This document shows positions 1-13,220 of a stretch of DNA of 13,220 nt, one piece after another. Source of the DNA: a virus; IMG/VR virus record IMGVR_UViG_3300045988_070639, positions 1 through 13,220 of that record; one strand, given 5' to 3'. Made by a program: the position numbers and the translations under genes. The notes beneath the pieces are model-generated. The model saw nothing but the letters and a program-made list of their open reading frames with translations, did not search any database and had not been told where the DNA came from. Position 1 is the first letter of the stretch. Each line of letters starts with the position of its first letter.

Positions 1-119
1 AAAGTGTATCACTTGATTTTCGCGGACATTTGTTTACCCCACACGGATATTCTTTCTGTCTCTTGTGCGTGGACAGTGTTCATATGACATGGGCAATAGG
101 TATGATATATTTACGTTAT

Positions 120-137
120 ATGTTTCACGTGAAACAT
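120..137. repeat. 18-bp perfect palindrome ATGTTTCACGTGAAACAT inside ITR-L; candidate dimeric protein-binding site
   Basis: Read directly: ATGTTTCAC|GTGAAACAT is its own reverse complement. A120 pairs with T137; the symmetry breaks at 119/138. A second copy lies at 13084-13101. Confidence 0.9.
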
Positions 138-337
138 CACATAGTTAGTCAAGCCTAACACGTCCGGCGTAGTGTCCACGGCTCATGCACAAAACAGGGC
201 ATTGTTTTCGAACATTTGACAGTTTTTGACGAACAGAACCGCCGGGTGTAATTATAGCCCCGGCAAAAATCGTTGTGTAGGGCCGTCCAGGGCCTCACAG
301 AGGTATTGGCATATTGCACAAAACAGAGGGCGAATAA

Positions 338-357
338 TTGGGTAATTCTTGGGTAAT
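338..357 (+). promoter_or_regulatory. Tandem direct repeat TTGGGTAAT x2 with 11-bp phasing, just upstream of the ITR promoter -35; candidate operator or activator site
   Basis: TTGGGTAAT occurs at 338-346 and 349-357. The second copy ends 9 nt before the -35 hexamer at 366-371. Confidence 0.5.
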
Positions 358-365
358 ATTCCAAC

Positions 366-393
366 TTGAACTTTCCGGAAAGTGTGGTATAAT
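366..393 (+). promoter_or_regulatory. Inward-facing sigma-70/sigma-A-type promoter in ITR-L (extended -10)
   Basis: TTGAAC (366-371), a 16-nt spacer, TG at 385-386, and TATAAT (388-393). It is followed by a purine-rich leader and the first + strand gene. Confidence 0.65.
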
Positions 394-449
394 ATAATCA
401 CAAAGGGAAAGGAAGTTCCGATGAAATAATGAAAGGACGGTAATTAAAA

Positions 450-668
450 ATGACGTACGGCGAATTTTTTAAGGCTTGCGAAGATGGGAAAATTGTGGCG
501 TATGATAAGAAAAGTGTACGGGGCTACGTGTCCCGCCGCTTGAAAGACAGCGACCCCTTAACAATGGGCGTTGCCGGTGGTTGTAGAGCCGGTGAAAAAT
601 ATGTGTTGCTCCCCCGTTGGGACAGCACAAGTTATTGCTACCGGGTATACTTTAGGGAGGTTCTGTGA
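450..668 (+). CDS. Hypothetical early protein (72 aa)
   Basis: This is the first ORF downstream of the ITR promoter and leader. Its stop is 2 nt before the next start, fitting the tight gene packing. No recognisable motif. Confidence 0.6.
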   Translation: MTYGEFFKACEDGKIVAYDKKSVRGYVSRRLKDSDPLTMGVAGGCRAGEKYVLLPRWDSTSYCYRVYFREVL

Positions 669-669
669 A

Positions 670-984
670 ATGAATCTATTGTTGGAGACTCTCGACAGCC
701 TACATTGCAATGGGAAAAATCCTAGTGATGTCGAATGGGTAGGGCGTAGAAGTACTAGTGCGGTATGCAGTTGGGATGAGTTTGAAAAACAGGCTAGATA
801 TATCGAATATGATAATGGTTATGGCATTCCTGAGGTACCGGAGGATTTGGTCATAGTTGGTGCCAATTGGTGGTTGGAGCGCTATGAATATAACGGGTCA
901 GAGTGGTGGGAGTATAAAGCACTCCCGAAGAAGTGGGATAAATATACAACTGAGTTAGGGTTAAAATATATTAGGAGGTGGTAA
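670..984 (+). CDS. Hypothetical early protein (104 aa), Trp-rich (..GANWWLERYEYNGSEWWEY..)
   Basis: An in-frame ATG at 670 is preceded by AGGGAGG (654-660). The longer 571 start would overlap the upstream gene by about 100 nt and has no SD. Confidence 0.7.
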   Translation: MNLLLETLDSLHCNGKNPSDVEWVGRRSTSAVCSWDEFEKQARYIEYDNGYGIPEVPEDLVIVGANWWLERYEYNGSEWWEYKALPKKWDKYTTELGLKYIRRW

Positions 985-986
985 CA

Positions 987-1349
987 ATGAGTAAAATTTA
1001 TACAGACGGATGGCATTTGGTCAAGGGCCACAATGACGCAATCTTAGTAAAAGATGGCAAGTTTGCGGCGGCAATCATTCGGGGCGTACATTGCGCCCCT
1101 ATTGCCGTGGACAAATTAACCGGTAAATATATCCCGTATGCTCCTACGGCATATTACGGGGAGGTATATACTACCACTTGGGCAACGGTCAAAGAGATAG
1201 ATCTCTGTTCTTATATCCGTAAACTGCCGTGGAAAATCCGGGACCGTATCGTCCCAAATTGTAAAACGTGCCAACGGTATGTCAATACCTGCGCCGGAAT
1301 GTACGGTTACATTACAGACGAGATTGCAGAAGTATGTGAGGGGCGATGA
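987..1349 (+). CDS. Hypothetical early protein (120 aa) with C-terminal Cys cluster (CKTC..C..C), possibly metal-binding
   Basis: ATG at 987 lies 8 nt after AGGAGG (973-978). The CxxC-x6-C-x15-C pattern was read from the translation. Function unknown. Confidence 0.7.
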   Translation: MSKIYTDGWHLVKGHNDAILVKDGKFAAAIIRGVHCAPIAVDKLTGKYIPYAPTAYYGEVYTTTWATVKEIDLCSYIRKLPWKIRDRIVPNCKTCQRYVNTCAGMYGYITDEIAEVCEGR

Positions 1350-1350
1350 A

Positions 1351-1509
1351 GTGAAAGTTGTAAATAGATGTAACCGGATTTTGTCCATGCCGGACAGCCT
1401 CACCAAGATGTTAAAGGTGTGGAACTTTGTTGGGGAGTGTCTACCGTATGGGAATTGGTGGACCCTTGCAATGCGAGAGTTTAACCGGCTCTACAATTTG
1501 GGGTATTGA
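1351..1509 (+). CDS. Hypothetical small protein (52 aa, GTG start)
   Basis: GTG at 1351 lies 7 nt after GAGGGG (1338-1343) and 2 nt after the upstream stop. This matches the 2-3 nt inter-gene spacing of its neighbours. The start is uncertain, since the ORF track begins at 1279. Confidence 0.4.
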   Translation: MKVVNRCNRILSMPDSLTKMLKVWNFVGECLPYGNWWTLAMREFNRLYNLGY

Positions 1510-1510
1510 A

Positions 1511-2191
1511 ATGGCAAGACGAAAGCAAACAAAATGGTTAAAACCGGAGGGGAGCCGCTACCGGCTCCCGGACTATTATTATGACCCGACAAAAGTCTAT
1601 GACTGGGCGGGGGATCCTGAGGACGTCCGCAGTGCGAAGGACGAGTATATAAGACTCCGCAAAACCGCTATGCAACGGCTCAGGAGCATTAAAAAGGCTG
1701 GCTTTGCATGGACAGACGGCTATAAAACGTTTGATGAATATCTTCGTCCGGCTAGCAAGTTGACCACCTTCGCAGACCTTGCCGTGGGCTTGCAGAATTT
1801 GGTGGAATTTTTCGAAACGCCACAAAAAACTACTATAACAGGCATTAGGGAAAATATAAATAAGCATATTAAAGCATTTCAGGCGAGGGGTATTGACTTT
1901 ATCAGCACGAACGAAGATTTTCATTTATTCACAGAATTTTTACAATTACGAATACAGATGGGGCTAGCAGAAATGTATGACAGCGAACAGATTATTGATC
2001 TAGTTAAAGACATGAAGGATCTGAACATTGACTCAGAAACGATAAAGGCGAATTTTGCAGAATTTCTAAAGTCCTCCGCCGGTGGCACGTTGCGGAAGGA
2101 ATACAGGGAGGCGGCGAACGATGGAGTTGAAAAGTATAGCCGCCGAAAGCGCAATCCCGTACCTGCAAGCGGCGAAACCTCTGGAAAGTAA
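1511..2191 (+). CDS. Candidate terminal protein (TP) for protein-primed replication (226 aa)
   Basis: The gene sits immediately upstream of, and overlapping, the protein-primed polB gene, as phi29 gene 3 does with gene 2. It has a basic N-terminus, MARRKQTKW (phi29 TP starts MARSPRIRI, from memory). The segment AKDEYIRLRKTAMQRLRSIKKAGF (nt 1634-1705) resembles phi29 TP DKAEYARLVKNTKAKIARTKKKYG. ATG at 1511 lies 2 nt after the previous stop. Confidence 0.6.
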   Translation: MARRKQTKWLKPEGSRYRLPDYYYDPTKVYDWAGDPEDVRSAKDEYIRLRKTAMQRLRSIKKAGFAWTDGYKTFDEYLRPASKLTTFADLAVGLQNLVEFFETPQKTTITGIRENINKHIKAFQARGIDFISTNEDFHLFTEFLQLRIQMGLAEMYDSEQIIDLVKDMKDLNIDSETIKANFAEFLKSSAGGTLRKEYREAANDGVEKYSRRKRNPVPASGETSGK

Positions 2192-4220
2192 GGGTGGAAG
2201 AAGAAAACAAAGTGCAAGAAATGACATAGTTACACTAGACCAAATCGCCGCTTTTGACATTGAGACCACTCGGCTAAAGCCGGAAGATTTTCCCGAATTA
2301 TCAGCCCCGGAGAAAATCCGGGGCGAATGGGTAGAAACCCGCCGCAACGAACAGTCTATCATGTATATCTGGACCTTATGTCTCCATGAAAAGTGCATGA
2401 TAATCGGCAGAACATGGGACGAATTTACAGCCATGATTGACGGTTGGAACGAATATCTTGTGCAAAATGATTACCGTCTTGTGATATGGGTTCATAATCT
2501 GTCATACGAATTTCAGTTTCTGTCCGGAATCCACAGATTTTCCAGGGAAGATGTTATGGCGGTAAAGTCCCGGAAAGTCCTTGCGTGTACATGGGGTAAC
2601 ATTGAATTTAGATGTTCATATCTTCATTCCAATATGAATTTGGACACGTTCACGAACAAAATGCACGCAGAACACACAAAATTATCCGGAAAAGAGTTTG
2701 ATTATACAAAAATCCGTTTCCCGTGGACAGAAATGACACAAAACGAACTTGCATATTGTACAAACGATACTCAGGGACTATGCGAAGCCTTGGCAAATGA
2801 AATGCAAGCGGACGGCGACACATTGGATACAATTCCCCGCACGTCAACCGGATATGTACGGCGGGACGTGCGAAATGCAATCCGAAGCAACAAAGAGTTG
2901 GTTTATAAAATTCGTGCGATCTTTCCCGATATGGACGTATATACCTATTTGCGGGAGGCTTTTAGGGGCGGTAACACCCACGCTAATCGTCACTATGCCG
3001 GAAAAGTGTTACACAATGTAGTATCGGCGGACCGGTCCAGCAGTTATCCGGATGTGCAGTGCAATAACTTGTTTCCAATGGGCGAGTTCAAGAGGCTGGG
3101 TCGGTCCACCGTGGAAAGACTTCTGTCCATGCATGACAGAGGAACCGCCACGCTTGCACGGATTGCTATAGCAAACTGTCACTTGCGGCATATATCGGAC
3201 GGATGCCCCTATATCCCCCGGGACAAATGCCGCCAAATTGTGAATGGGGTCTATGATAACGGGCGAGTTATAGCGGCGGATTATCTTGAAATAACAGTGA
3301 CGGATATTGATCTACAGATTATCGTTGACCACTACAACGGCACATATATAGTTATCGGCGGTTTTTACTCTACTTATGGCAAGTTGCCGCCGGAAATGGT
3401 GGGGGTTTTGTGTGACCTTTATCGCAAAAAGACCGAATTAAAAAACGTAGGAGGACAGGAATTGATATATGCAAAAAGTAAAGCAAAGTTGAATAGCGTG
3501 TATGGTATGACAGCCCAAAACCCCGCAAAGCCTGAGGTCTATTTTGATGGCGAATGGGGGGAAGATGCTCTAAATATTGGGGAAGCCCTGGCAGATGCTC
3601 AGCGCAATGCCTTTTTGTCATATGCGTGGGGCGTGTGGACAACTGCGTGGGCAAGATACCACTTGCAAAGCGCTATTGATTTGGTCGGGACTAGATTTGT
3701 GTATTGTGATACCGATTCTGTCAAATATCTGGAAACAAATGTTCCCCCCGACTGGACATCGTACAACAATGACCGTATAGCGGCAAGCAAACAGTCCGGG
3801 GCGTGGGCGATTGACCCGTCAGGGGAAGCCCACTACATGGGCGTATTTGAACCGGATGGAAAATACCCCGCTTTTGCAACTCTAGGGGCGAAAAAGTACG
3901 CATATTCGGACGAAAATGGGAAAACACACGTCACAATAGCAGGAGTGAGCAAAAAAGAGGGCGGTCCCGAACTGGATGCCGGGGACGAGTACGGAAAGGG
4001 GCTGGACCGATTTGTAAACACAAATCCGGGGTTTCTTTTTCGAAAAGCTGGCGGGGCCGAACTGATGTACAATGACCACCCGGCTATCACGTCTTTAACG
4101 GTTGACGGTCATGTATTGCCGATAACCGCTAACGTGGTTATTAGAGATAGTACGTATCAGCTTGGCATTACCGCAGAATATAACAAAATTTTACAGGAAA
4201 TTACAAAAGAAAAACATTGA
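2121..4220 (+). CDS. Family-B DNA polymerase, protein-primed type (phi29-like, DNA_pol_B_2 / PF03175-like), 699 aa
   Basis: Motifs read from the translation:
- ExoI FDIETT (2253-2270)
- ExoII HNLSYEFQF (2493-2519)
- ExoIII YCTND (2754-2768)
- motif A DRSSSYP (3030-3050)
- motif B KLNSVYG (3486-3506)
- motif C YCDTDS (3702-3719)
- KxY KKY (3891-3899)
The start is set at ATG 2121, 9 nt after AGGGAGG (2105-2111). Confidence 0.95.
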   Translation: MELKSIAAESAIPYLQAAKPLESKGGRRKQSARNDIVTLDQIAAFDIETTRLKPEDFPELSAPEKIRGEWVETRRNEQSIMYIWTLCLHEKCMIIGRTWDEFTAMIDGWNEYLVQNDYRLVIWVHNLSYEFQFLSGIHRFSREDVMAVKSRKVLACTWGNIEFRCSYLHSNMNLDTFTNKMHAEHTKLSGKEFDYTKIRFPWTEMTQNELAYCTNDTQGLCEALANEMQADGDTLDTIPRTSTGYVRRDVRNAIRSNKELVYKIRAIFPDMDVYTYLREAFRGGNTHANRHYAGKVLHNVVSADRSSSYPDVQCNNLFPMGEFKRLGRSTVERLLSMHDRGTATLARIAIANCHLRHISDGCPYIPRDKCRQIVNGVYDNGRVIAADYLEITVTDIDLQIIVDHYNGTYIVIGGFYSTYGKLPPEMVGVLCDLYRKKTELKNVGGQELIYAKSKAKLNSVYGMTAQNPAKPEVYFDGEWGEDALNIGEALADAQRNAFLSYAWGVWTTAWARYHLQSAIDLVGTRFVYCDTDSVKYLETNVPPDWTSYNNDRIAASKQSGAWAIDPSGEAHYMGVFEPDGKYPAFATLGAKKYAYSDENGKTHVTIAGVSKKEGGPELDAGDEYGKGLDRFVNTNPGFLFRKAGGAELMYNDHPAITSLTVDGHVLPITANVVIRDSTYQLGITAEYNKILQEITKEKH

Positions 4221-4245
4221 CAAATTGAAAAGGCTCTGATATAAT
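4217..4245 (+). promoter_or_regulatory. Consensus sigma-A-type promoter with extended -10
   Basis: TTGACA (4217-4222), a 17-nt spacer, TG (4237-4238), and TATAAT (4240-4245). The -35 hexamer contains the polymerase TGA stop (4218-4220). A 5-bp hairpin, GTTGG-AAAA-CCAAC (4253-4266), lies at the predicted transcript 5' end. Confidence 0.75.
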
Positions 4246-4303
4246 ATAGACAGTTGGAAAACCAACACAAAATAAAATCAAAAACTGAAAGGAAGCAACA
4301 ACA

Positions 4304-4648
4304 ATGGAAATTATCAAAATGAGTAAGAACGTGGAGGGTGCCGACCTGTATTTTCTCACCACGTCCCCGGAGATTGAGAAAATGACTACCGTAAAGGGTG
4401 AAACCCTGGCTCTTGACAAGTGGGCGCTGTTTGCCGATGCCGACCGTAAAACCGGAGAGATGCGGCGAATCCTCTCCATCAAGTCCGGCAATAAGATGTA
4501 CGCCACCAACTCCGCAACGTTTATCGACAGCTTTGTAGCAATGATGGAGTGTTTTGACACGATGGGCATCGATGTCCACCATATCCGGGTTACTACCGGC
4601 AATAGCAAGGGCGGTAGGGAGTTTATCAATTGCGTGTATGCCGACTGA
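4304..4648 (+). CDS. Candidate single-stranded DNA-binding protein (phi29 p5-like), 114 aa
   Basis: Its size is close to phi29 p5 (124 aa). The C-terminal pattern ..KMYATNSATFIDSF...HHIRVTTGNSKGGREFINCVY resembles p5 ..SLYSAISKTVAEAA...FKVKVVQGTSSKGNVFFSLQL, recalled from memory and not aligned. It forms a stand-alone unit with a consensus promoter, SD GAAAGGAAG and its own terminator, consistent with very high expression. Confidence 0.5.
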   Translation: MEIIKMSKNVEGADLYFLTTSPEIEKMTTVKGETLALDKWALFADADRKTGEMRRILSIKSGNKMYATNSATFIDSFVAMMECFDTMGIDVHHIRVTTGNSKGGREFINCVYAD

Positions 4649-4655
4649 TCGCACA

Positions 4656-4685
4656 AACAAAGGCCCGGGAAACCGGGCTTTTGTT
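4656..4685 (+). terminator. Rho-independent terminator
   Basis: Stem GCCCGG (4663-4668) pairs with CCGGGC (4673-4678) around a GAAA tetraloop, followed by TTTTGTT. Flanking A and T runs extend the stem. Confidence 0.8.
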
Positions 4686-4699
4686 ATATGGAGGAAAAC

Positions 4700-5743
4700 A
4701 TGGAAAATATTTATACTCCGGACGGTTGGCTGGACGTACCGAAAATTGTTGCAAAGCCATACCCCTTTATTTTTTGCACCGGGGCTCGGGGTGTCGGTAA
4801 GACCTATGGCGCATTGAAGTATGTTATTGAAAACGGCATACCTTTTATATATTTGCGCCGGACCCTAACGGAAACCGAATTTCTGGCGGCGAATGAAAGC
4901 AATAACCCTTTTGCCCGGCTGAATGAAGATACCGGGGAATGCGTGGGCCTGTCAAAATCGGGCAAATATACAACGGAAATTGTGCGCCGGGTCCCGGACG
5001 GTGATAAGCTGATACCGGACGGCCCACCGGTTGGGATGATGCTGGCGTTATCTACAATTAGCAATTTGCGTGGTTTTAACGGCGAACAATACAGTATAAT
5101 TGTATATGACGAATTTATACCGGAACCACACGCACGGCCCATCCGGGAGGAATGTATGGCCTTGATGAACGCATATGAAACCATCAACCGAAACCGGGAA
5201 TTATTGGGCAAGCCGCCAGTTAAGTTGCTCTGTCTCTCCAACTCTAACCGGCTGGATAATGCTATCTATATGGGTCTGGGTCTGGTGAATAAAGTTGTGC
5301 AGATGCAACGCAAGCACCAGCAACTCAGCTATATGCCGGACCGGGGTATCATGATGGTTAATATCATGGACAGTCCCATTTCAGCCGCTAAAAGTAAAAC
5401 CGCCCTCTATCGTATGACAGCCGGAACGGAATTTGGCGCAATGGCGTTAGATAACAAGTATATCGGCGAGGACCTTGCAATGCCGAACAAATCGGAAGAT
5501 TTGCGGAATTATGACCCACTTGTAAACATTGGGGAGTTGTGTATTTACCGCCGAAAGGGCGGCGAAAACCTCTATATTACCACCCACGTTTCCGGCGGTC
5601 CAACACGGTTCGGTCTGTCGGATGCGGAATTAACAAATTTCCGCAGGAAATATAATTGGATATGGGCGAAGTATATAACCGGCAGAATTATTTTTGAAGA
5701 ACGTTTGTGCGAAATACTGCTTAATCGGTATTTTGGTGCTTGA
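4700..5743 (+). CDS. DNA packaging (encapsidation) ATPase, phi29 gp16-like, 347 aa
   Basis: Walker A is GARGVGKT (4781-4804) and Walker B is IIVYDEF (5096-5116). Further matches to remembered phi29 gp16 segments:
- PFIYLRRT vs QFIYVRRY
- CLSNS vs CLSNA
- GTEFGAMALDNKYIGED vs GTEYGEMSLDNQFIGD
ATG at 4700 follows GGAGGA (4689-4694). ATG at 4688 is an alternative start. Confidence 0.93.
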   Translation: MENIYTPDGWLDVPKIVAKPYPFIFCTGARGVGKTYGALKYVIENGIPFIYLRRTLTETEFLAANESNNPFARLNEDTGECVGLSKSGKYTTEIVRRVPDGDKLIPDGPPVGMMLALSTISNLRGFNGEQYSIIVYDEFIPEPHARPIREECMALMNAYETINRNRELLGKPPVKLLCLSNSNRLDNAIYMGLGLVNKVVQMQRKHQQLSYMPDRGIMMVNIMDSPISAAKSKTALYRMTAGTEFGAMALDNKYIGEDLAMPNKSEDLRNYDPLVNIGELCIYRRKGGENLYITTHVSGGPTRFGLSDAELTNFRRKYNWIWAKYITGRIIFEERLCEILLNRYFGA

Positions 5744-5767
5744 CAAAAGCAAACATTTGTGCTATAT
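5739..5767 (+). promoter_or_regulatory. Near-consensus sigma-A-type promoter with extended -10, upstream of the structured leader and the lysis and morphogenesis genes
   Basis: TTGACA (5739-5744), a 17-nt spacer, TG (5759-5760), and TATATT (5762-5767). The -35 hexamer contains the ATPase TGA stop (5741-5743), the same arrangement as the promoter at 4217. Confidence 0.7.
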
Positions 5768-5773
5768 TGTGTG

Positions 5774-5937
5774 TAGTGACCCCGTGGGCAAGGACACTCC
5801 CGGAAGGAGGCCCGTGCGGCTGTCCACCGCAGGAACGGGGTCGCGTTATGTGGGAGCGAGTGGCGGCGAGAATGGCGAGCGGTGGGTGCAACTCCCCCGG
5901 CCCACAACCACAAAACGAACATGAAAGGGGCAGAAAT
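5774..5937 (+). ncRNA. Candidate structured RNA or 5' leader with a pRNA-like three-way junction (core 5777-5841)
   Basis: This is a non-coding gap of about 165 nt after a consensus promoter. Hand count gives 96/140 G+C for 5771-5910. Pairings found by hand:
- P1: 5777-5783 with 5835-5841 (7 bp)
- P2: 5785-5788 with 5809-5812
- P3: 5796-5799 with 5805-5808
- P4: 5814-5818 with 5826-5830
- bulge GGACA (5791-5795) is complementary to hairpin loop UGUCC (5820-5824).
No folding program was run. Confidence 0.35.
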
Positions 5938-6141
5938 ATGAATGAAGTTGTGCAGTTGATTACCACATTGATTAGCAATGTGGGATTCCCTATCGCTTGC
6001 GTCTGCTATTTGTTCTATTCCCAGCAAAAGGAACGTGAAGCCCACGCAATCGAAAGCAAGGCATGGGTGGATGCTCTGGACCGGAATACGCAGGTCATGG
6101 AGCGGCTGGAAGGCAAGCTGTCCACCCACAAGGAGGGCTAA
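5938..6141 (+). CDS. Small single-pass membrane protein, YvrJ-like; putative holin or lysis accessory (67 aa)
   Basis: ATG at 5938 follows AAAGGGG (5923-5929). There is one hydrophobic segment, VVQLITTLISNVGFPIACVCYLFY, followed by a charged tail. The N.GFPI...YL pattern recalls the YvrJ family. The gene sits directly upstream of the endolysin. Confidence 0.7.
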   Translation: MNEVVQLITTLISNVGFPIACVCYLFYSQQKEREAHAIESKAWVDALDRNTQVMERLEGKLSTHKEG

Positions 6142-6144
6142 TGT

Positions 6145-6816
6145 ATGCCTAGTATATACATTAGTCCGTCTGACCAAGATAGGAATTACGGATGCGGAAC
6201 CTATGGTAGCGAGATGGAGCAGATGGAGTTGCTGGCGGCAGAAGTCGGCAAGGCTCTGGACCGGTGCGGCGTAAAACACAAAATCTGTTATCATACGGAG
6301 ATGGGCATTGACGGCAGACCCGCCGACTGCGATAAGCTAGGCTATGATTATTATCTGGCCTTACATAGCAACGCAGGTGGGGCGGGAGTTGCCCGTGGAT
6401 GTGTCGCATACTACTATGAGGCCGGGAAGAACCTGGCGAACACGCTTGCATATGCCCTTAGAAAAATCGGTCAGCCGTCTGACCGGTGGGCAAGTGTCCA
6501 GCAGAATAAGACATTTTACGAGTGCCGCATGATGGCGGCAACGTCCGTCCTTTTTGAGGTCGATTTTCACGACACACCCGCCGGGGCCGCTTTTATCATG
6601 GCCCGCCGGGTGGATATTGCGGAAGCTATTGCCGAAAGCATTTGTGCAGAGTTTGGCGTGGACTATGTTCCCCCCAAACAGGAAACGATCAAGGATGTTC
6701 TTTATTGTGTGCAGATGGGCGCATTTAAGAACAAAGCGAACGCCAAAAAGCTGGCGGCGAAAATGAAAAAGGCCGGTTATGACGTTTATATTACCGAAAA
6801 GGAGCGAAATGTATGA
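6145..6816 (+). CDS. Endolysin: N-acetylmuramoyl-L-alanine amidase (Amidase_3 / PF01520-like) with C-terminal SPOR domain (PF05036-like), 223 aa
   Basis: The motifs YISPSDQ..N, GSEMEQ, LALHSNAG and LFEVDFHD match the Amidase_3-like pattern. The C-terminus YCVQMGAFKNKANAKKLAAKMKKAGYDVYI (about 6697-6795) is a typical SPOR signature. SD AAGGAGGG (6130-6137). Confidence 0.85.
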   Translation: MPSIYISPSDQDRNYGCGTYGSEMEQMELLAAEVGKALDRCGVKHKICYHTEMGIDGRPADCDKLGYDYYLALHSNAGGAGVARGCVAYYYEAGKNLANTLAYALRKIGQPSDRWASVQQNKTFYECRMMAATSVLFEVDFHDTPAGAAFIMARRVDIAEAIAESICAEFGVDYVPPKQETIKDVLYCVQMGAFKNKANAKKLAAKMKKAGYDVYITEKERNV

Positions 6817-7136
6817 AAATCGAACAGATTACCGCCCTGAAAGATGCTGGTTTCACCGCTGAACAGATTGTAGCGTTGGCCCCCATTTTGACGGAGGAAC
6901 CCCCGAAGCCGGAACCCCCGAAGCCGGAACCCCCGAAGCCGGAACCCCCGAAGCCGGAGCCGGAGAAGTCCCCCATGGAGGAAATGATGGTTGCCATGCA
7001 TAAACAATTTGAAGATATGTTGAAAGCGGTACAGGGGGCCATGATTAACGGCTCCCGGCAGGCTGAAACCGAAATGACGGCGGCAGACGTTGCCGCTAGT
7101 ATCCTGGACCCCGGCAGAAACCGGGGCAAGAAGTGA
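6813..7136 (+). CDS. Candidate scaffolding protein (107 aa) with (EPPKP)x4 linker
   Basis: A small, acidic protein that looks helical, immediately upstream of the capsid gene, the position of phi29 gp7. ATGA start/stop overlap with the endolysin gene. SD AAAGGAG. Function assigned by synteny only. Confidence 0.55.
   Translation: MKIEQITALKDAGFTAEQIVALAPILTEEPPKPEPPKPEPPKPEPPKPEPEKSPMEEMMVAMHKQFEDMLKAVQGAMINGSRQAETEMTAADVAASILDPGRNRGKK
6896..6958 (+). repeat. Perfect 15-bp tandem repeat, 4.2 copies (GAACCCCCGAAGCCG), encoding EPPKP x4
   Basis: Read directly: units in codon register lie at 6897-6911, 6912-6926, 6927-6941 and 6942-6956, with no substitutions. A degenerate GAGCCGGAGAAG follows. 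Confidence 0.95.
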
Positions 7137-7151
7137 AAGGAGTAAACAGAA

Positions 7152-8321
7152 ATGGCACAGAATGAACTCAATTTCGAACAGGTTAGCACCCTGTTGAAAG
7201 CTACCCTGGCGCAGGTCAGAGGAGCGGAAGCTGTTGGCGAAATTACCACCGCCAACTTTGCAAGCGTCGGCACGACTGCCCTTAAATGTGGGTATGATAA
7301 TTTGCTCAACGCTGTCAGTCAGGTGTTGTCCGCCACATATTTCTCCATTCGACCCTATCGGGGCAAGTTCGGCGGTCTGTATGTGGACAGCCAAAAGTGG
7401 GGCGGTTATACCCGTAAAGTGCAGGTGGTTGACAAGGATCCCGAGAACAATGCGGAGTACACGCTGGCGGACGGTCAGTCCGTAGACATGTACGAAATTC
7501 ATAAGCCCAAGGTTCTCCAGCTTAATTTCTACGGCGGTAACACCTATTCCCGGGATCTGCCCATTTTCAAGGACCAGCTGGACGTGGCATTTTCCAGCCC
7601 CGCCGAACTTGGCCGGTTCTGGGCGATGCTCTACCAGAATCTGGACGATATGGTCCAGCAGGATAAGGAGACGGAGGCACGGCTGGCGGTGCTAAACTTT
7701 ATTGGCGGCAAGATTCAGGGTGATACGGACAACGTTGTCCATCTTGTTACTAAGTATAACGATATTACCGGCAAGACCCTAGACGCCAACACGGTGAGAC
7801 AGCCCGAAAACTGGACGGACTTTTGCCGCTGGATGCTGGGTTATATTCGCACCCTGTCTGAGAAGCTGACGAACCGGACCGTCAAATATCATATCAATGT
7901 AACCGGCAAGCCCATTACCCGGCACACCCCGCTGGACCGACAGAAGGTCTATCTACTCTCCGACGATGCCAACATGATTGACACGACGGTCATGTCCACG
8001 ACCTACAACGAAGACTATCTCAAAGTTGTCGATTATGAGACGGTCAGTTTTTGGCAGAGCATTGACAACCCCGCCGCCATCAATGTTACCCCGTCTTATT
8101 TGGCTCCCGATGGCACTATCGCCACCGCAACTAAGGCAGTCACCGCCGACGTTTTTGGCGTTATCTTTGACGAGGAGGCAATCCGGGCAAGCCTCATCAA
8201 TGAGTGGAGCGGCACGACCCCGCTTAACGCACGTGGCGGTTACAGTGTTCGGTGGGATCATTACACCGTGCGGTGGATGAACGATTTCACAGAAAATGGT
8301 CTGGTCTTGTGTCTGAACTGA
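7152..8321 (+). CDS. Major capsid protein (HK97-fold, phi29 gp8-like without the C-terminal Ig-like domain), 389 aa
   Basis: The gene lies after the scaffold candidate, has a strong SD (AAAGGAG) and is followed by a hairpin. The N-terminal GEITTANFASVGTTAL and C-terminal LNARGGYSVRWDHY..F.EN resemble remembered phi29 gp8 segments (PLATANNVAEVGAGIL; RNPRGLYWNYYYHV..FANA). Confidence 0.78.
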   Translation: MAQNELNFEQVSTLLKATLAQVRGAEAVGEITTANFASVGTTALKCGYDNLLNAVSQVLSATYFSIRPYRGKFGGLYVDSQKWGGYTRKVQVVDKDPENNAEYTLADGQSVDMYEIHKPKVLQLNFYGGNTYSRDLPIFKDQLDVAFSSPAELGRFWAMLYQNLDDMVQQDKETEARLAVLNFIGGKIQGDTDNVVHLVTKYNDITGKTLDANTVRQPENWTDFCRWMLGYIRTLSEKLTNRTVKYHINVTGKPITRHTPLDRQKVYLLSDDANMIDTTVMSTTYNEDYLKVVDYETVSFWQSIDNPAAINVTPSYLAPDGTIATATKAVTADVFGVIFDEEAIRASLINEWSGTTPLNARGGYSVRWDHYTVRWMNDFTENGLVLCLN

Positions 8322-8326
8322 TTGAA

Positions 8327-8351
8327 ATAAGCCCCCTTTATGGGGGCTTAT
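8327..8351 (+). terminator. Strong hairpin after the capsid gene; possible attenuator or partial terminator without a U-tract
   Basis: ATAAGCCCCC (8327-8336) pairs with GGGGGCTTAT (8342-8351) around a TTTAT loop, giving a 10-bp perfect stem. It is followed by AAACAA rather than a T-run. Confidence 0.5.
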
Positions 8352-8367
8352 AAACAAGGGTGATTAT

Positions 8368-9795
8368 ATGGTCAATTTGGTGTTCGAAACTACCGGAAAA
8401 GCGTACAACTCTACACAAATTAAAGACTTCTCGCAATCCACCTGGAGATATGAGGGCGAATTTGTTGAACCTTTTGACATATTGCACCCTGTCGTGAAAT
8501 TGTGGTTGGGAGCCAATGAAGCCGGTGTGTCATATATACCCCGTAATATCAACTATGCGTTCATCCCGGAAACATCCCGGTATTACTGGGTGAGACGTTG
8601 GGAGTATGATTCCGGCATGTGGTTATGCTATCTTGACGTGGACGTATTGGCTACATATCGTAGCACAATTTTGACTTTTAACGCTTATGTCAATCGCTCT
8701 TCCAAATCCACAACCACCAGCATACCCGACTATATCACGCCGGTGCAAGCCGTTGGAGACCAGACCACCACCACATTATTGCCCACATTGGCGGGTAACA
8801 TGGCATACAATCTCAAGGATGGATATTATGTAGTCGGCATACTCAACAGCGATGCGAATAGTGTGGGGTGTGTATCGTACTATGCTTTTGACAACGCAAA
8901 TTTTCGGGCATTTTGCAAAAAGCTGATGGAGTCTCCCAACTGGGCGTTCTCCGGCATTACGGACATTTCTGAAAGTTTGTTCAAAGCCCTATTCAATCCG
9001 CTACAATATATTACAAGTTGCATGTGGTTCCCAACTTTTCCGCAGGGGTTCGCAAATTCAACGTTTTCTATGCCTTTCGGCTGGTGGAATTTCACCGTTA
9101 CCGGATTCCGAATTGGTACAACAACTAGAACGTTTGAATTTGAGTGTACAATGCCACTGCACCCGCAGTTTACTGACCGGGGGCTGTTTGTTGAGACTGC
9201 ACCGTTCACCCTGCGGGATGTGTACTGGGCACCGATTGGGACAATCCCGCTTGACATGAGTTGCAATTACAATACCGATTTGCGATTGCAAGTGCTGATT
9301 GATTTTTGCACCGGTGCTTCCCCCTACAAAATCTACACCGTTGCGGCAAGTGGAGCGACAACGGACCTGTCCGCCGGTAGTGTGCAAATCGGTGTACCGC
9401 TACAGATTGGGCAAATCGTCAATGATTATATTGGAGCCGCTAAAAATGTGCTATCCGCTGTTGGTTCGGGTTTTTCCCTCGACATTGGCGGGGCTGTCAA
9501 CGGCGTTCTCAACGCCGCTGAATCGCTAATCCCCGCACCGTCCACCAGCGGCACAAACGGAAGTGTTGCCGGATTCGCCGAAAATCCCGTACTGCATAGC
9601 CGGTTTTACACTTCTCAAGCCCCGGTGGCTAACGTGGTGGGTTTGCCGTTTGGCGGGTTTGCACAGTTGAGGACACACGCCGGAGGGTATGTACAATGCG
9701 GCACCGTACTAGCTGTTGACAACGGTGTGGGAATGTTCCCGGAGGAAAAACAGGAAATTGTTGCACAGCTTCAAAGCGGGGTGTATTTGGACTAA
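8368..9795 (+). CDS. Tail knob / distal tail tube protein, phi29 gp9-like, 475 aa
   Basis: Three segments resemble remembered phi29 gp9:
- N-terminal RYYWVRRWEYDSGMWLCYLDVDVLATY vs NKWFYAFVTELEF...VHFEIDVLQTW
- an internal Gly/Ala-rich segment, IGAAKNVLSAVGSGFSLDIGGAVNGVLNAA
- C-terminal GYVQCG...EEKQEIVAQLQSGVYL vs NYVQTKD...NDLQEIRTIFDNGITLW
The position after the capsid gene matches phi29. Confidence 0.65.
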   Translation: MVNLVFETTGKAYNSTQIKDFSQSTWRYEGEFVEPFDILHPVVKLWLGANEAGVSYIPRNINYAFIPETSRYYWVRRWEYDSGMWLCYLDVDVLATYRSTILTFNAYVNRSSKSTTTSIPDYITPVQAVGDQTTTTLLPTLAGNMAYNLKDGYYVVGILNSDANSVGCVSYYAFDNANFRAFCKKLMESPNWAFSGITDISESLFKALFNPLQYITSCMWFPTFPQGFANSTFSMPFGWWNFTVTGFRIGTTTRTFEFECTMPLHPQFTDRGLFVETAPFTLRDVYWAPIGTIPLDMSCNYNTDLRLQVLIDFCTGASPYKIYTVAASGATTDLSAGSVQIGVPLQIGQIVNDYIGAAKNVLSAVGSGFSLDIGGAVNGVLNAAESLIPAPSTSGTNGSVAGFAENPVLHSRFYTSQAPVANVVGLPFGGFAQLRTHAGGYVQCGTVLAVDNGVGMFPEEKQEIVAQLQSGVYLD

Positions 9796-10355
9796 TGGCT
9801 ACATTTATCCCACGTCTGGATTCTGACGGAATGTGGCAAAATCCGAAATGGTACGCCGATAATGTGTTTTATACATCCGGCTACGGTTTGCCTAACTGTA
9901 CCTGTTACGCATGGGGCCGCTTTTGGGAAATTGGTGGGGGCCGTCCGGCCCTGCCAACTTCTAACGGCGGCGAGTGGTGGGCAGATGCTCAGGCGAGTGG
10001 CGCATACCGGACCGGACAGGTTGCACAGGTGGGGGCCGTTGCCTGTTATGAGGACCTGGACGGCGGGGCCGGTCATGTGGCAGTCGTTGAGCGGATAAAC
10101 ACGGATGGAACTCTGCTAATTTCGCAATCCGCATGGCGCAGACCCTTGACCGATTATCCCCCGGATATGGAGGGCTATTTCTGGACTAATACCACGGTAG
10201 GGTCTACTAATATGGCGCAATGGTTAATCAATGGCAACTATGCTTTTCAGGGGTTTATATACCACCCCGATTTTCCGCCCGGGCCTACCCCAACGCCCAC
10301 GGGGATTCCGGCGTGGTTGCTTTTCAAGTTTAAGCCGTATATGGTCAAGAGGTGA
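9795..10355 (+). CDS. CHAP-domain peptidoglycan hydrolase (PF05257-like), probably virion/tail-associated, 186 aa
   Basis: The catalytic Cys lies in the context PNCTCYAWGR (Cys codon 9897-9899) and the His in GHVAVVE (10074-10076). The gene is embedded between the tail knob and portal genes, with a TAATG stop/start overlap with the knob gene. Confidence 0.85.
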   Translation: MATFIPRLDSDGMWQNPKWYADNVFYTSGYGLPNCTCYAWGRFWEIGGGRPALPTSNGGEWWADAQASGAYRTGQVAQVGAVACYEDLDGGAGHVAVVERINTDGTLLISQSAWRRPLTDYPPDMEGYFWTNTTVGSTNMAQWLINGNYAFQGFIYHPDFPPGPTPTPTGIPAWLLFKFKPYMVKR

Positions 10356-10362
10356 TACAAAA

Positions 10363-11274
10363 TTGGATTTACCATATTATTACAACTATTCAAACGTCAT
10401 TGACGCAAAAACGTCTCCGTCTGGCGTACACGTTACAAACACCGCCACCGCAACTTTTTTCCGGCGGTACTTGCTTCAAAAGGCTATGAGCGTTTTTGAG
10501 TGGACCATGCCCAAATTTTGGAGCAAAGACTATTTTTTGTATAGTCTATATATCGGTGGTTCCGTTGCGATTATCGAGACGGATAAATATGGAGTGATTC
10601 CACAGGGCGGACAGCCATCCGGCTACAACGTGTTCTATCAGCCCCGGCAGTATTACATTGCAAACCCGCTATTACAGGGCATCAAGTACCCAATTATCAA
10701 CGAGCAATGCACCGTGTTCAAATGTACCCGGGATTGGGGCGGCATTATGGACCTAGTTAGCTTTTACGGGGACTATATGGCACTGGCGGCGCAGGCGATG
10801 GGGGTCAACCTTTTCAATTCCCGTCTAGCCTATGTTTTCGGGGCCAAAAATCAAGCAACTGCCGAAAGTTTTAAAAAGGCTTTTGACCGTGTGGCAAGCG
10901 GTGACCCCGCCGTGGTGGTTGACAAGTCCATGTTCACGGATGACGGCGAGTTTGCCACCCCGTTTTTTGAACAAAATGTTGGACAAAATTACATTTCCGA
11001 CAGGCTGATTGAGGCTCTACTAAATATCGATAATATGTTCTGTACCACGGTTGGGATTCCCAACGCCAACTATAACAAGAGAGAGCGCACGGCTAGTGGT
11101 GAAATTGGTATTAACAATTTTGAAACCCGGTGCATGGCTGACAGTTGGTTGGAGGGCTGGATGGAAAGTTGCGAGAAAACCAAACAGATGTTCGGGATTG
11201 ACATTTCCGTGGATTGGCGGGAAAATAAGGAGGAGTTTGCAAATGTGCTGGAACAGGATGCGCCCAACGGTTAG
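10363..11274 (+). CDS. Portal (upper collar / connector) protein, phi29 gp10-like, 303 aa, TTG start
   Basis: YLLQKAMSVFEWTMPKF resembles YLQSLAYQLFEWENLP. GIPNANYNKRERTASGEIG...SCEKTKQMFGIDISVDWR resembles GIKNANLEKKERMVTDEV...ACEKINELYGLNVKVKFR (phi29 gp10, from memory). TTG at 10363 lies 7 nt after AAGAGGTGA (10346-10354). The resulting length is close to gp10 (309 aa). Confidence 0.85.
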   Translation: MDLPYYYNYSNVIDAKTSPSGVHVTNTATATFFRRYLLQKAMSVFEWTMPKFWSKDYFLYSLYIGGSVAIIETDKYGVIPQGGQPSGYNVFYQPRQYYIANPLLQGIKYPIINEQCTVFKCTRDWGGIMDLVSFYGDYMALAAQAMGVNLFNSRLAYVFGAKNQATAESFKKAFDRVASGDPAVVVDKSMFTDDGEFATPFFEQNVGQNYISDRLIEALLNIDNMFCTTVGIPNANYNKRERTASGEIGINNFETRCMADSWLEGWMESCEKTKQMFGIDISVDWRENKEEFANVLEQDAPNG

Positions 11275-11899
11275 CTATCTGGGTCTGTATAACTACGACC
11301 CTTCACTTTTTGATGATTTTGACCTACCGGACAGCATTCTGGACCGGGGGCTGGATGTATTTGTTGTTGACCTTCTGTCCGAAATTGGACAGCTTGAAGC
11401 CCTCTATCCCAACGCCATCGTATTCAAAAAAATCCTAAAAGCATGGAGCAAAACCCGGATGCCGGAGTGGCAAAGGGTGGAAACCGCTTTAACGGCGGAA
11501 TATAACCCCATTCACAATTTTGACCGCAATGAAGATTATACAGACACAAATACCGAAAAAGAAACAGGAACGAGCAACAGCACGAGCAGTACCGAAAGCA
11601 CAGCGAACGGAACGAACGAAAATAGTGAATCTGTAACGGCATTTAATACGGAAAGTTTTAAGAACCGAACAAAAAATGCCGGGACGGATACCGCCACCAG
11701 CAATGCAAGCGCGACTAACAAAAGTGACAATACGGTAACGAGGGAAACAAACGTGCAACACACGGCGCACCTATACGGCAATATCGGCGTTACCACGTCG
11801 CAACAGATGATCAACGAAGAGTTAGCCATGCGGCGGGGTGATTTGGAGTCGTATATCATTGACGATTTCAAGCACCGGTTTTGTCTGATGGTATATTAG
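11243..11899 (+). CDS. Candidate lower collar / head-tail adaptor (218 aa) with S/T/N-rich central segment
   Basis: The gene follows the portal gene, as phi29 gp11 does. ATG at 11243 lies 8 nt after AAGGAGG (11228-11234) and overlaps the portal gene by 32 nt. The central region of about 74 residues (nt 11537-11758) is dominated by T, S, N and E. Function assigned by synteny only. Confidence 0.5.
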   Translation: MCWNRMRPTVSYLGLYNYDPSLFDDFDLPDSILDRGLDVFVVDLLSEIGQLEALYPNAIVFKKILKAWSKTRMPEWQRVETALTAEYNPIHNFDRNEDYTDTNTEKETGTSNSTSSTESTANGTNENSESVTAFNTESFKNRTKNAGTDTATSNASATNKSDNTVTRETNVQHTAHLYGNIGVTTSQQMINEELAMRRGDLESYIIDDFKHRFCLMVY

Positions 11900-11911
11900 G
11901 AGGTGTAATAA

Positions 11912-12469
11912 ATGGGACTTTTTAATCATTTCCCCTACCCGGACACACACCAGCTTAACCTTGACTGGATTCTTGAGACGGTCAAAGGTTGCATGGATAA
12001 AGTCACAGAGTTATGGACCTACGTCAAGGAGCCGGGATCCGGCATTCAAAAAGCATTGACGGATGCCCAGGCGGCGGCGACTACTGCCCAAACTAGCGCC
12101 GCAGATGCCCAGACGTCTGTAACAAATGCACAAAAGTTTGCTACTGACGCACAGAATCATGCGAACAATGCCGGAGAATCCGCTGATTTGTGCGCCGAAT
12201 ATCTGAACGGTATGCAAGCCATGATGGGCAAGCTATACCCGGTTGGGGCCGTGTATGTCAATTACCGTAACCAAGCGATGCCGGTAGAAAGTGACACCAC
12301 CGTGATTGCAAGGCTCAAAGCGCTGACCGGCGGCACGTGGACAAGAGCCGGGAGCCATGGACAGCCGGTAACAGCGTCCGGGCAAATGGGTTGGGCTACC
12401 GTCATTCTAGGCAATGCGGCTGGCGATGCTGTCGATACCAATTTCAATATTTACGTCCGCACGGCGTAA
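11912..12469 (+). CDS. Short tail fibre / appendage (receptor-binding protein candidate), 185 aa
   Basis: The N-terminus FNHFPYPDTHQLNLDWIL matches a motif I recall at the N-termini of tail-fibre proteins from Gram-positive phages. Six exact heptads ending in AQ (nt 12050-12175) suggest a coiled coil. A small C-terminal domain reads YPVGAVYVNY...GGTW. SD AGGAGGTG (11898-11905). Confidence 0.65.
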   Translation: MGLFNHFPYPDTHQLNLDWILETVKGCMDKVTELWTYVKEPGSGIQKALTDAQAAATTAQTSAADAQTSVTNAQKFATDAQNHANNAGESADLCAEYLNGMQAMMGKLYPVGAVYVNYRNQAMPVESDTTVIARLKALTGGTWTRAGSHGQPVTASGQMGWATVILGNAAGDAVDTNFNIYVRTA

Positions 12470-12505
12470 TAATTGCCCCCGGCCAGAAACCGGGGGCTAT
12501 TATTA
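12467..12505. terminator. Bidirectional intrinsic terminator between convergent genes
   Basis: GCCCCCGG (12475-12482) pairs with CCGGGGGC (12490-12497) around a 7-nt loop. The stem is extended by TAATAAT / ATTATTA arms, which contain the stop codons of both convergent genes. Confidence 0.75.
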
Positions 12506-12769
12506 TGCATGATATTCAGCGTCAGGCGTGTACTTCCACACCGTCCGCCCCTTAAGATTTTCAATAGACGTTCCGTCCCGGATACAATCGCCAGCTGTAT
12601 CATAATACCAGCCTCGGCACTGCTCGAAAAATTTGCTCCACGTTTTAAAACTGATAAAGCCCATATTAGTCATTCGATAAAAACTATCCCATATTTTATC
12701 AAATTCTTCACGACTTCTAGAATAATTCACCAACGTTTCTTTCATATTCGTTACGTTTAACGCTTTCAT
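12503..12769 (-). CDS. Hypothetical right-end protein (88 aa); the only leftward gene
   Basis: The ATG (complement of 12767-12769) lies 8 nt outside the ITR-R boundary, downstream of the ITR-R copy of the promoter and leader. The stop lies in the bidirectional terminator. No recognisable motif. Confidence 0.65.
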   Translation of the reverse strand: MKALNVTNMKETLVNYSRSREEFDKIWDSFYRMTNMGFISFKTWSKFFEQCRGWYYDTAGDCIRDGTSIENLKGRTVWKYTPDAEYHA

Positions 12770-12827
12770 TGTTTTTGTTACCGTCCTTTCATTATTTCAT
12801 CGGGACTTCCTTTCCCTTTGTGATTAT

Positions 12828-12855
12828 ATTATACCACACTTTCCGGAAAGTTCAA
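12828..12855 (-). promoter_or_regulatory. Inward-facing promoter in ITR-R (mirror copy of 366-393)
   Basis: This is the reverse complement of the ITR-L promoter and is identical to it. It drives the - strand gene 12769..12503. Confidence 0.65.
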
Positions 12856-13083
12856 GTTGGAATATTACCCAAGAATTACCCAATTATTCGCCCTCTGTTT
12901 TGTGCAATATGCCAATACCTCTGTGAGGCCCTGGACGGCCCTACACAACGATTTTTGCCGGGGCTATAATTACACCCGGCGGTTCTGTTCGTCAAAAACT
13001 GTCAAATGTTCGAAAACAATGCCCTGTTTTGTGCATGAGCCGTGGACACTACGCCGGACGTGTTAGGCTTGACTAACTATGTG

Positions 13084-13101
13084 ATGTTTCACGTGAAACA
13101 T
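13084..13101. repeat. ITR-R copy of the 18-bp palindrome ATGTTTCACGTGAAACAT
   Basis: Mirror position of 120-137; read directly. Confidence 0.9.
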
Positions 13102-13220
13102 ATAACGTAAATATATCATACCTATTGCCCATGTCATATGAACACTGTCCACGCACAAGAGACAGAAAGAATATCCGTGTGGGGTAAACAAATGTCCGCG
13201 AAAATCAAGTGATACACTTT

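Follow-up and report, generated by a model that had tools for sequence, protein, structure and literature searches.

A family of compact three-way-junction RNAs at the head of the late operon of small phi29-like phages, and its resemblance to the phi29 packaging RNA

The DNA analyzed here is the IMG/VR virus record IMGVR_UViG_3300045988_070639 (positions 1 to 13,220; hereafter the window), a complete linear genome of a phi29-like phage of 13,220 base pairs (bp), with all of its major genes on the + strand. In the gap of 194 nucleotides (nt) between the genes for the packaging ATPase and the holin lies a structured RNA, whose core, at 5776–5844, is identified by sequence comparison as a member of a large, previously unnamed family of phage RNAs 63–81 nt long. 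The core is predicted to fold as a three-way junction composed of a closing helix (P1), a branch in which a short helix (P2) is followed by a 5'-side bulge and a hairpin (E), and a second hairpin (P3). We consider it about an even bet (probability near 0.5) that the family is the counterpart of the phi29 prohead, or packaging, RNA (pRNA) in small phi29-like phages, mostly from gut metagenomes. Even if its function turned out to be regulatory, the comparative data would make it a well-supported new RNA family. The parts of the core in the window, where K denotes the pairing between the bulge and the P3 loop, are:

5776–5844, + strand: core structured RNA, three-way junction, 69 nt (descriptor scan, covariance model R1, covariation)
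5776–5785 with 5835–5844, + strand: P1 closing helix, 10 bp, including GACCCCG (5778–5784) with CGGGGUC (5836–5842)
5786–5789 with 5810–5813, + strand: P2, GGGC:GCCC
5790–5796, + strand: bulge AAGGACA, 7 nt
5797–5809, + strand: E hairpin CUCC-CGGAA-GGAG, with its loop CGGAA at 5801–5805
5814, + strand: linker between P2 and P3 (J2/3), G
5815–5831, + strand: P3 hairpin UGCGG-CUGUCCA-CCGCA, with its loop at 5820–5826
5832–5834, + strand: linker between P3 and P1 (J3/1), GGA
5792–5796, + strand: bulge strand of K, GGACA, at the 3' end of the bulge and adjoining the E helix (covariation)
5821–5825, + strand: P3-loop strand of K, UGUCC (covariation)

A near-identity DNA search against GenBank phages gave no match to the window, so the relatives were reached through the ATPase protein, which has 2,810 relatives at E values of 1e-5 or less. 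Our sample comprised 80 loci (ATPases 39–57% identical), 80 whole genomes, three more clades, and several GenBank records; the loci are designated by L numbers below. The closest DNA relatives are four IMG/VR contigs, with ATPases 93–97% identical and elements 89–95% identical to those of the window, and these four already display one compensatory change in the E stem, from U-A to A-U. Nearly all the sampled relatives carry, a few nt past a −10 box, an element of 63–81 nt with the design seen at 5776–5844. In this design P1 has 6–14 bp (57 unique members), P2 has 4–6 bp, the 5'-side bulge has 7–9 nt, and the E hairpin has 4–5 bp, with the loop CGGAA in 53 of the 57 unique sequences and CUGAA in the other four. 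The P3 hairpin has 4–7 bp and a loop of 4–9 nt, and the three linkers measure 0 nt (J1/2), 1–2 nt (J2/3), and 3–5 nt (J3/1, purine-rich). Some unpaired nt are conserved, in the CGGAA loop, the AA of the bulge, and the purine-rich J3/1.

A descriptor of this design, written by hand and scanned over both strands, found exactly one instance in 79 of the 85 sources, with no false positives. A covariance model built from the relatives (R1), also searched on both strands, yielded 80 matches in 84 sources (491 kb), one per source, and 65 matches in 80 genomes (1,037 kb), one per genome. All of these matches (E = 3e-18 to 7e-5) lie in the same genomic place, and nothing else appeared at E of 1 or less in about 1.5 Mb; the match in the window spans 5777–5843 (64.3 bits, E = 1.4e-14). 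Searching with the filters off added L065, L088, L089, L139, L152, L155, L157, and MT835998, and the variants left after R1 were readable by eye. In an alignment of 57 distinct rows (A4), 90.3% of the cells are standard pairs, compared with 57.1% in shuffles and 30–45% with slid partners; changes on both sides were found in 25 of the 27 pairs, and the covariation score was 0.83 versus 0.19. The preliminary description of this DNA, made from its letters alone, had proposed the closing helix, the bulged first branch, and the second branch, and had staked its proposal on relatives that keep the region with compensatory changes. The junction is present, the region is kept, and compensatory changes occur in every helix as well as in the bulge/loop pair. 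The sequence features named in that description are all there as well, although each had been placed 1 nt too low.

It is because of these comparative data, and not of folding energy, that the structure is regarded as more than chance. Relative to shuffles, the folding energy was not significant either for 5768–5940 (z = +1.46) or for the 69-nt core (z = −1.70), and it was therefore dropped as evidence for the element; the nested minimum-energy fold of the window forms GGACA:UGUCC in cis, at the cost of P2 and P3. Rfam gave no family match for the window, whether judged by gathering scores or with E allowed up to 10. Rfam 15 does not contain the element, and in scans of the window and five relatives the sole match reaching its gathering score was a tRNA. 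The Rfam pRNA model (RF00044), which had been suggested as a check, matches neither the element of the window nor any of five diverse relatives at E up to 5.

The central structural prediction, namely that GGACA in the bulge is complementary to UGUCC in the loop of the second branch, is confirmed by the covariation of K across lineages. In every lineage, the last 3–6 nt of the bulge are complementary to the P3 loop, though the sequences change, and about 20 distinct complementary versions of bulge and loop were observed. Examples are GGACA:UGUCC (the window), GCACA:UGUGC, GGUCA:UGACC, AGUCA:UGACU, UUGCA:UGCAA, ACAGC:GCUGU, UGUCA:UGACA, UAGCA:UGCUA, GUAUCA:UGAUAC, GUGCA:UGCAC, AACCA:UGGUU, and CGC:GCG versus CAC:GUG. 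Complementarity averages 4.5 nt in matched pairs of bulge and loop and 2.4 nt in mismatched pairs. In A4, 85% of the K helix is paired; for three of the five K pairs, 25–34 double changes and four Watson-Crick pair types each were counted. Between L038 and L039, four pairing positions differ and only one other position does.

The core is also the predicted first element of the late transcript, with its own strong predicted promoter. The near-consensus promoter noted in the preliminary description is found directly upstream, with a score of 11/12 and an extended −10 (TG at 5760–5761):

5740–5768, + strand: sigma-70-type promoter of the RNA and the late operon (TTGACA 5740–5745, 17-nt spacer, TATATT 5763–5768)
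5927–5930, + strand: ribosome-binding site (GGGG) of the first late gene (direct sequence reading)

The core begins a few nt past this promoter, and in the relatives the equivalent −10 box is 3–12 nt 5' of the start of the model. The stop codon of the ATPase gene (TGA, 5741–5743) is inside the −35 hexamer TTGACA (5740–5745), and in many relatives the −35 box is encoded by conserved C-terminal codons of the ATPase (LLTKYF), so that the ATPase gene at its end is fused to the beginning of the late unit. For 5771–5910, the earlier figure of 96/140 G+C is exact (0.686 versus 0.482 genome-wide), and only 14 of the 13,080 segments of 140 nt in this genome are equally GC-rich. The stretch is non-coding, as had been described. 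An ATG at 5848 in the holin frame would add 30 residues in the style of dual-start holins, and it is TTG in close relatives; coding capacity was ruled out by indels of 2–3 nt that break the frame in these relatives.

In the RF00044 consensus, phi29 pRNA opens with an A helix of ~24 bp, which a single linker nt connects to a C helix of 9 bp. Next come a bulge of 9 nt (GAUUAAACC), with its final four nt engaged in the intermolecular pairing, the E hairpin (CUGA-UUGAGU-UCAG), a UUU linker, and a D hairpin that has the loop UGGUU and adjoins the A helix without a linker. The new family has its parts in the same order, as had been recognized from the window alone, with P1 in the place of the A helix, P2 in that of the C helix, then the 5' bulge and E, and P3 in the place of the D hairpin. 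As in phi29 pRNA, the pairing nt (3–6) are at the 3' end of the bulge beside E and covary with the D loop. The D loops are similar in format, typically UU-NNNN-G, and in one subgroup, where the loop is UUGGUUG, the pairing AACCA:UGGUU closely resembles AACC:GGUU in phi29. Also shared are an own sigma-70-type promoter, a closing helix near the 5' end of the transcript, and, in some clades of the new family, a second domain on the 3' side.

The phages that carry the new RNA are, like phi29, protein-primed podoviruses with a gp16-type ATPase and a gp10-type portal. That the window encodes both proteins, as described previously, is upheld by Pfam and PHROG matches and by the match of the ATPase family profile to phi29 gp16 (7jqq_A; E = 4e-24), which covers profile positions 11–306 and extends into the C-terminal part; the alignment of the same profile to the ATPase of asccphi28, a phage reported to lack a pRNA, is restricted to the N-terminal domain. 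R1 found no match in asccphi28, nor in the Eggerthella phage LE1-1. Together with the protein-primed-type polymerase and the terminal inverted repeats, the ATPase and portal genes give the window the genome context of a phi29-type motor. The new family also differs from phi29 pRNA. The core of the new family has 63–81 nt rather than 117–120 nt, its linkers have 0, 1–2, and 3–5 nt rather than 1, 3, and 0 nt, and its E loop is CGGAA rather than UUGAGU. The new RNA heads the late operon, whereas phi29 has its pRNA in an early gene of its own at the left end of the genome, and the new RNA is usually without a terminator, with many members having a segment complementary to E (anti-E, see below) in the mRNA leader.

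The same three-way junction was also found in minimum free energy folds of three phages whose ATPases are 24–34% identical to that of the window. In the cultured Amedibacillus phage AD70P2 (OP172638, Guelinviridae), the element is on the minus strand at ~6412–6475, with the bulge AUAUCCAAU and the P3 loop GGGA. The variant of MT836155 has the E loop CAGAA and GUCG:CGAC as K, and that of MT836587 has the bulge UAUCCAA and the loop GGGA. In L155 and L157, P1 has grown to ~15 bp with an internal loop, and these two and the L158 clade hold the longest P1 variants (~11–16 bp, with an internal loop). A larger form of the RNA occurs in the L158 clade, where P1 has ~11 bp, a further hairpin separates E from P2, and the E loop is UUGGGAG; the 67 unique sequences of this clade show compensatory changes in every helix and in K (GUAC:GUAC to GUGC:GCAC).

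In the relatives, the RNA always heads the lysis/structural transcription unit. In L090 and in the L119 group, it is ~8 kb from the ATPase gene, close to the other end of the genome and encoded by the opposite strand; there the order after the RNA is holin, lysin, scaffold, and capsid, and the ATPase gene ends in a strong terminator.

L090 10395–12831, − strand: inverted lysis/structural block, also found in L119, L124, L126, L128, L138, L139, L141, and MT835998

The RNA is thus not tied to the ATPase gene, and these inverted groups also rule it out as the 3' untranslated region (UTR) of that gene. They do not decide between action in cis and in trans, because a rearranged phage is viable only if promoter, RNA, and genes have stayed linked. 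The first gene after the RNA varies, being a YvrJ-like holin in most relatives, a holin of another type in L053, a lysin in L077, and a scaffold-like protein in L020, MT836155, and AD70P2; holin-specific regulation was ruled out on this ground.

A promoter is present in all the members, and a defined 3' end of the RNA was found in two clades only. In the MT836587-like clade, a tRNA-Gln(UUG) starts 3–5 nt past the RNA in 79 of the 80 loci (L250–L329), and RNase P processing of this adjoining tRNA would therefore free the RNA from the mRNA, a step that we infer. Among the first 249 loci scanned, the sole standard tRNA was a tRNA-Gln(UUG) at L089 8489–8564 (− strand). Past the RNA of the L158 clade come a hairpin with a covarying stem and a conserved 11-nt loop, GUGUCA(A/C)AGC, and then UUUUGUUUC. 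This hairpin with its U-tract is terminator-like, and after it come a possible, weak second promoter and the holin gene. Upstream of the holin gene there are also two copies of the perfect palindrome TTTCACGTGAAA, ~35 bp apart, which look like operators for a dimeric regulator.

L158 5537–5660: hairpin after the RNA and palindromes, also found in the relatives L165–L249

From its sequence, the L158 version looks like a separate small-RNA unit of two domains and ~150 nt, which recalls the 174-nt pRNA of phi29. Taken together, the tRNA and terminator clades point to a separable RNA.

Another long-range complementarity, in 36 of the 128 unique sequences, links the element to the mRNA. This anti-E segment, 6–9 nt complementary to the 5' strand and loop of E, lies 8–16 nt past P1, immediately upstream of the ribosome-binding site; ~2 cases arose in controls that were shuffled or reversed. 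Its carriers include L021, L018, L092, L097–L099, L105, L111, and L119–L141, and it covaries with E, as in CAGCCGGA:UCCGGCU, GGCCGGA:UCCGGCC, CGGACGGAA:UUCCGUCCG, CUCGGAA:UUCCGAG, UCUCGGA:UCCGAGA, and CCUGA:UCAGG. The E:anti-E helix is pseudoknotted relative to P1 and incompatible with the E stem, and it would therefore either mask the E loop before processing or allow the free RNA to bind the late mRNA leader. Judging from this covariation, some cis coupling is real in the 36 variants. In the clade of the window anti-E is unsupported, as the candidate GGGAG at 5852–5856 ignores the E-stem change of L001 and L003. The regulatory leader that the preliminary description held as a weaker alternative thus gains some support from the covarying complementarity of E and the 5' UTR in many relatives, although not in the clade of the window. 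Downstream of the core, the window has the following features:

5849–5905, + strand: clade-specific GC-rich extension of ~60 nt, with three (A/G)GCGAG repeats and the hairpin GUGGGU/GCCCAC
5855, 5865, and 5874, + strand: (A/G)GCGAG repeats
5882–5887 with 5900–5905, + strand: second hairpin, GUGGGU:GCCCAC

These repeats and this hairpin had been described before, and their sequences are present; the comparison lends their structure no support, and they do not belong to the conserved element. The extension is conserved only in the four close relatives and is absent where the ATPase is at most 57% identical. No convincing covariation was found for 5849–5905 in the five close sequences, which have several disruptive changes and one compensatory change pair (U5851-A5904 to C-G in L002).

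If the family is the counterpart of phi29 pRNA, the bulge and the loop would pair between molecules, head to tail as in phi29, and a ring of RNA on the portal vertex of the prohead would dock the gp16-type ATPase. The RNA would be freed from the late transcript by processing, in most relatives by cleavage in the AU-rich linker, while in one clade the terminator-like hairpin would take the place of cleavage and in another RNase P would cut at the adjacent tRNA; in many lineages anti-E would mask the E loop until release. Such a separable RNA is favored by the pRNA design in phages with phi29-type motors and by the tRNA and terminator contexts. For the members to be true prohead RNAs, minimal pRNAs of ~67 nt ringing the portal by a bulge/loop pairing of 3–6 bp, we see a chance slightly short of even. 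Several observations weigh against such a counterpart. P1, whose shortness had been remarked on in the preliminary description, has 6–14 bp (57 unique members), whereas phi29 has a bulged A helix of ~24 bp that carries the ATPase. RF00044 misses the new family (on phi29 itself it scores 145 bits), and R1 finds no match in phi29; because neither covariance model detects the other family, the resemblance may be convergent rather than homologous. It is the late operon, not the ATPase gene, that the RNA accompanies in the rearranged genomes, and in most relatives only 20–35 AU-rich nt, without a terminator, separate P1 from the start codon. Anti-E, which is without parallel in phi29 pRNA, indicates that the RNA is coupled to its mRNA in cis. 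Asccphi28, for which a 2020 study reported no evidence of a pRNA, shows that a motor of the gp16 type can work without one (PMC7823558). The pairing columns have 0.10 differences per site, the same rate as P1; the faster evolution that would reflect selection for specificity was not seen overall, so the columns give no sign that new specificities were selected.

Covariation cannot separate K pairing in cis from K pairing in trans, and an intramolecular pseudoknot of the bulge and the P3 loop, which would also count against a phi29-like ring, is possible. P2 has 4–6 bp (9 bp for the C helix of phi29) and is similar in length to P3; because P2 is short, the bulge and the P3 loop stand at a similar height above the junction. 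According to the rules of Lescoute and Westhof for three-way junctions, helices that pack side by side share the long strand. Since P2 and P3 are joined by 1–2 nt and the long linker is between P3 and P1, an intramolecular K is disfavored; by the linker rule P3 would lie along P1 or end to end with P2, and not beside P2, which speaks weakly for pairing in trans. Natural RNAs of the purine riboswitch or hammerhead type are also three-way junctions in which two arms may touch by Watson-Crick pairs. Their touching arms are joined by the longest junction strand and their cores have many invariant nt, while in the element the arms are joined by 1–2 nt and the core is almost without conserved nt; an expression platform is not visible in it.

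A cis-acting leader of the late operon, with K as an intramolecular pseudoknot in a compact fold at the 5' end of the transcript, is in our judgment rather unlikely. It could act by processive antitermination, as do the HK022 put RNA and the Bacillus EAR, by protection of the 5' end from decay, or by a switch between E and E:anti-E that tunes the first late gene. It is favored by the short P1, which begins within a few nt of the predicted transcription start, by the tight coupling to the first late gene (usually 20–35 nt to the start codon, without a terminator), and by the anti-E helix next to the ribosome-binding site, at 36/128 against ~2 by chance. It would also account for an RNA that is always first in the late unit, even where this unit is inverted away from the ATPase gene, for the similar lengths of P2 and P3, and for the terminator-like hairpin of the L158 clade, which is as in attenuator designs. 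Like the element, put and EAR are compact (~70–120 nt), promoter-proximal in a long operon, and could act without a dedicated downstream expression platform. Put RNA, however, consists of two simple hairpins and has no bulge/loop pairing, so that the element shares the promoter-proximal position and not the two-hairpin structure; a terminator-like hairpin downstream was found in the L158 clade only, no Rfam match links the element to these RNAs, and the window shows no evident need for antitermination, with no strong internal terminator found in its late operon. The tRNA inserted in 79 of the 80 loci of one clade would sever a stabilizer or translational regulator from its mRNA, and a simple stabilizer needs neither a covarying three-way junction nor a near-invariant loop. 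As to a riboswitch or translational leader, the first downstream gene varies, most members are without a terminator, and the ribosome-binding site is visibly sequestered in neither state of the switch. Anti-E is missing or unsupported in many clades, that of the window included, and a leader would leave the detailed match to the topology of pRNA to coincidence.

Still less probable, in our view, is a small RNA that acts in trans in some process other than packaging. K could then build a homo-oligomer, as in ROOL and GOLLD, or the RNA could be a decoy or regulator that contacts a host factor or the late mRNA leader through CGGAA. An E loop that is near-invariant (CGGAA in 53/57) while the proteins are at 24–57% identity fits a host or RNA partner, anti-E could be the target site in trans, and the tRNA and terminator contexts suggest a separable RNA. 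Natural homo-oligomers made of RNA only exist: ROOL, GOLLD, and OLE are phage- or prophage-associated RNAs that assemble by intermolecular RNA–RNA contacts (PMC12286853). These three have several hundred nt and another structure, and are not linked to phi29-type motors. No target or partner was identified, and a role of this kind leaves unexplained why the pRNA-like architecture occurs in phages with phi29-type motors. We give very little credence to a new ribozyme that, with a hammerhead-like junction and a loop/bulge contact, would cleave itself and so trim the late mRNA at its 5' end. Small ribozymes are abundant in phage metagenomes, and the general shape of the RNA and some conserved unpaired nt (the CGGAA loop, the AA of the bulge, and J3/1) would suit one. 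Against it, no Rfam ribozyme family matched, even at E up to 10, the ~6 unpaired junction nt are too few for known catalytic cores, and the tRNA and terminator contexts would make self-cleavage redundant.

To our knowledge, no RNA other than phi29 prohead RNA is built into a viral DNA-packaging motor as a structural component. How this RNA originated is debated, and RNA nanotechnology commonly uses it as a building block. A 2024 review of 2,115 phi29-like sequences calls pRNA "a unique feature inherent in" phi29 and related Bacillus phages (PMC11476376), and every phage named in the results section of a 2025 covariance-model search for new pRNAs is of the Bacillus group (PMC12670572). The earlier remark that pRNAs have been defined only in Bacillus phages agrees with these papers and the study of asccphi28 (PMC11476376, PMC12670572, PMC7823558), and we found no report of a pRNA outside Bacillus phages in the literature on pRNAs. 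The element may be one of 10,006 candidate RNAs without names that a study mined from IMG/VR (PMC10690425); two gut candidates of that study with high expression, of 64 and 81 nt and from phages assigned to Blautia/Ruminococcus hosts, are a lead only. Conservation of the element extends to hundreds of related phages, of which most come from gut metagenomes and those with a classification are Guelinviridae. If the family is indeed the counterpart of pRNA, RNA-dependent packaging would be no oddity of Bacillus phages but widespread and possibly ancestral in the phi29-like lineage. A smaller RNA of the same architecture in hundreds of gut phages makes it testable whether pRNA is ancestral or a late addition, and the family would supply a natural minimal version of pRNA and ~20 natural orthogonal pairing sequences. 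The Amedibacillus phages AD70P2 and AD70P3 are cultured carriers for such tests. Even a regulatory role would mean a new RNA family with two covarying long-range interactions at the head of the late operon of abundant gut phages.

The genes of the window that surround the RNA or belong to the putative motor are:

2082–4220, + strand: protein-primed-type DNA polymerase B (Pfam DNA_pol_B_2)
4688–5743, + strand: gp16-type packaging ATPase, putative protein partner of the RNA (Pfam Podovirus_Gp16, E = 7.5e-19)
5938–6141, + strand: holin, first gene of the lysis/structural operon 3' of the RNA (PHROG 4898, E = 6e-11)
6145–6816, + strand: amidase/SPOR endolysin
6813–7136, + strand: scaffold-like protein
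7152–8321, + strand: phi29-type major capsid protein (Pfam Phi29_MCP)
9795–10355, + strand: CHAP-domain protein
10231–11274, + strand: gp10-type portal (connector), putative docking site, start codon uncertain (Pfam Phage_connector, E = 3.7e-16; PHROG 2038)

The portal of phi29 binds pRNA by its basic N-terminus, which is why the true start of the portal gene of the window matters. When read from the ATG at 10231, the open reading frame (ORF) overlaps the CHAP gene by 125 nt and has an arginine-rich N-terminus (10231–10355); a TTG near 10357, with AGAGGTGA just upstream, is the more likely start. The genome is bounded by inverted terminal repeats of 449 nt (1–449 and 12772–13220; 99% complementary), both of which hold promoter-like sites in mirrored positions, and no tRNA was found in it. 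A perfect consensus promoter at 4217–4245 (TTGACA, 17 nt, TATAAT with TG; 12/12) is followed by an ORF of 114 amino acids (aa) without a family match (4304–4648) and then by the ATPase gene. The + strand genes end at a strong terminator, GCCCCCGG..CCGGGGGC (12475–12497), and a minus-strand ORF of 88 aa (12503–12769) lies between this terminator and the right terminal repeat. The scaffold-like protein (6813–7136) contains five tandem PKPEP repeats, and its homologues in L020, L090, and L158 have other proline-rich repeats at the same position.

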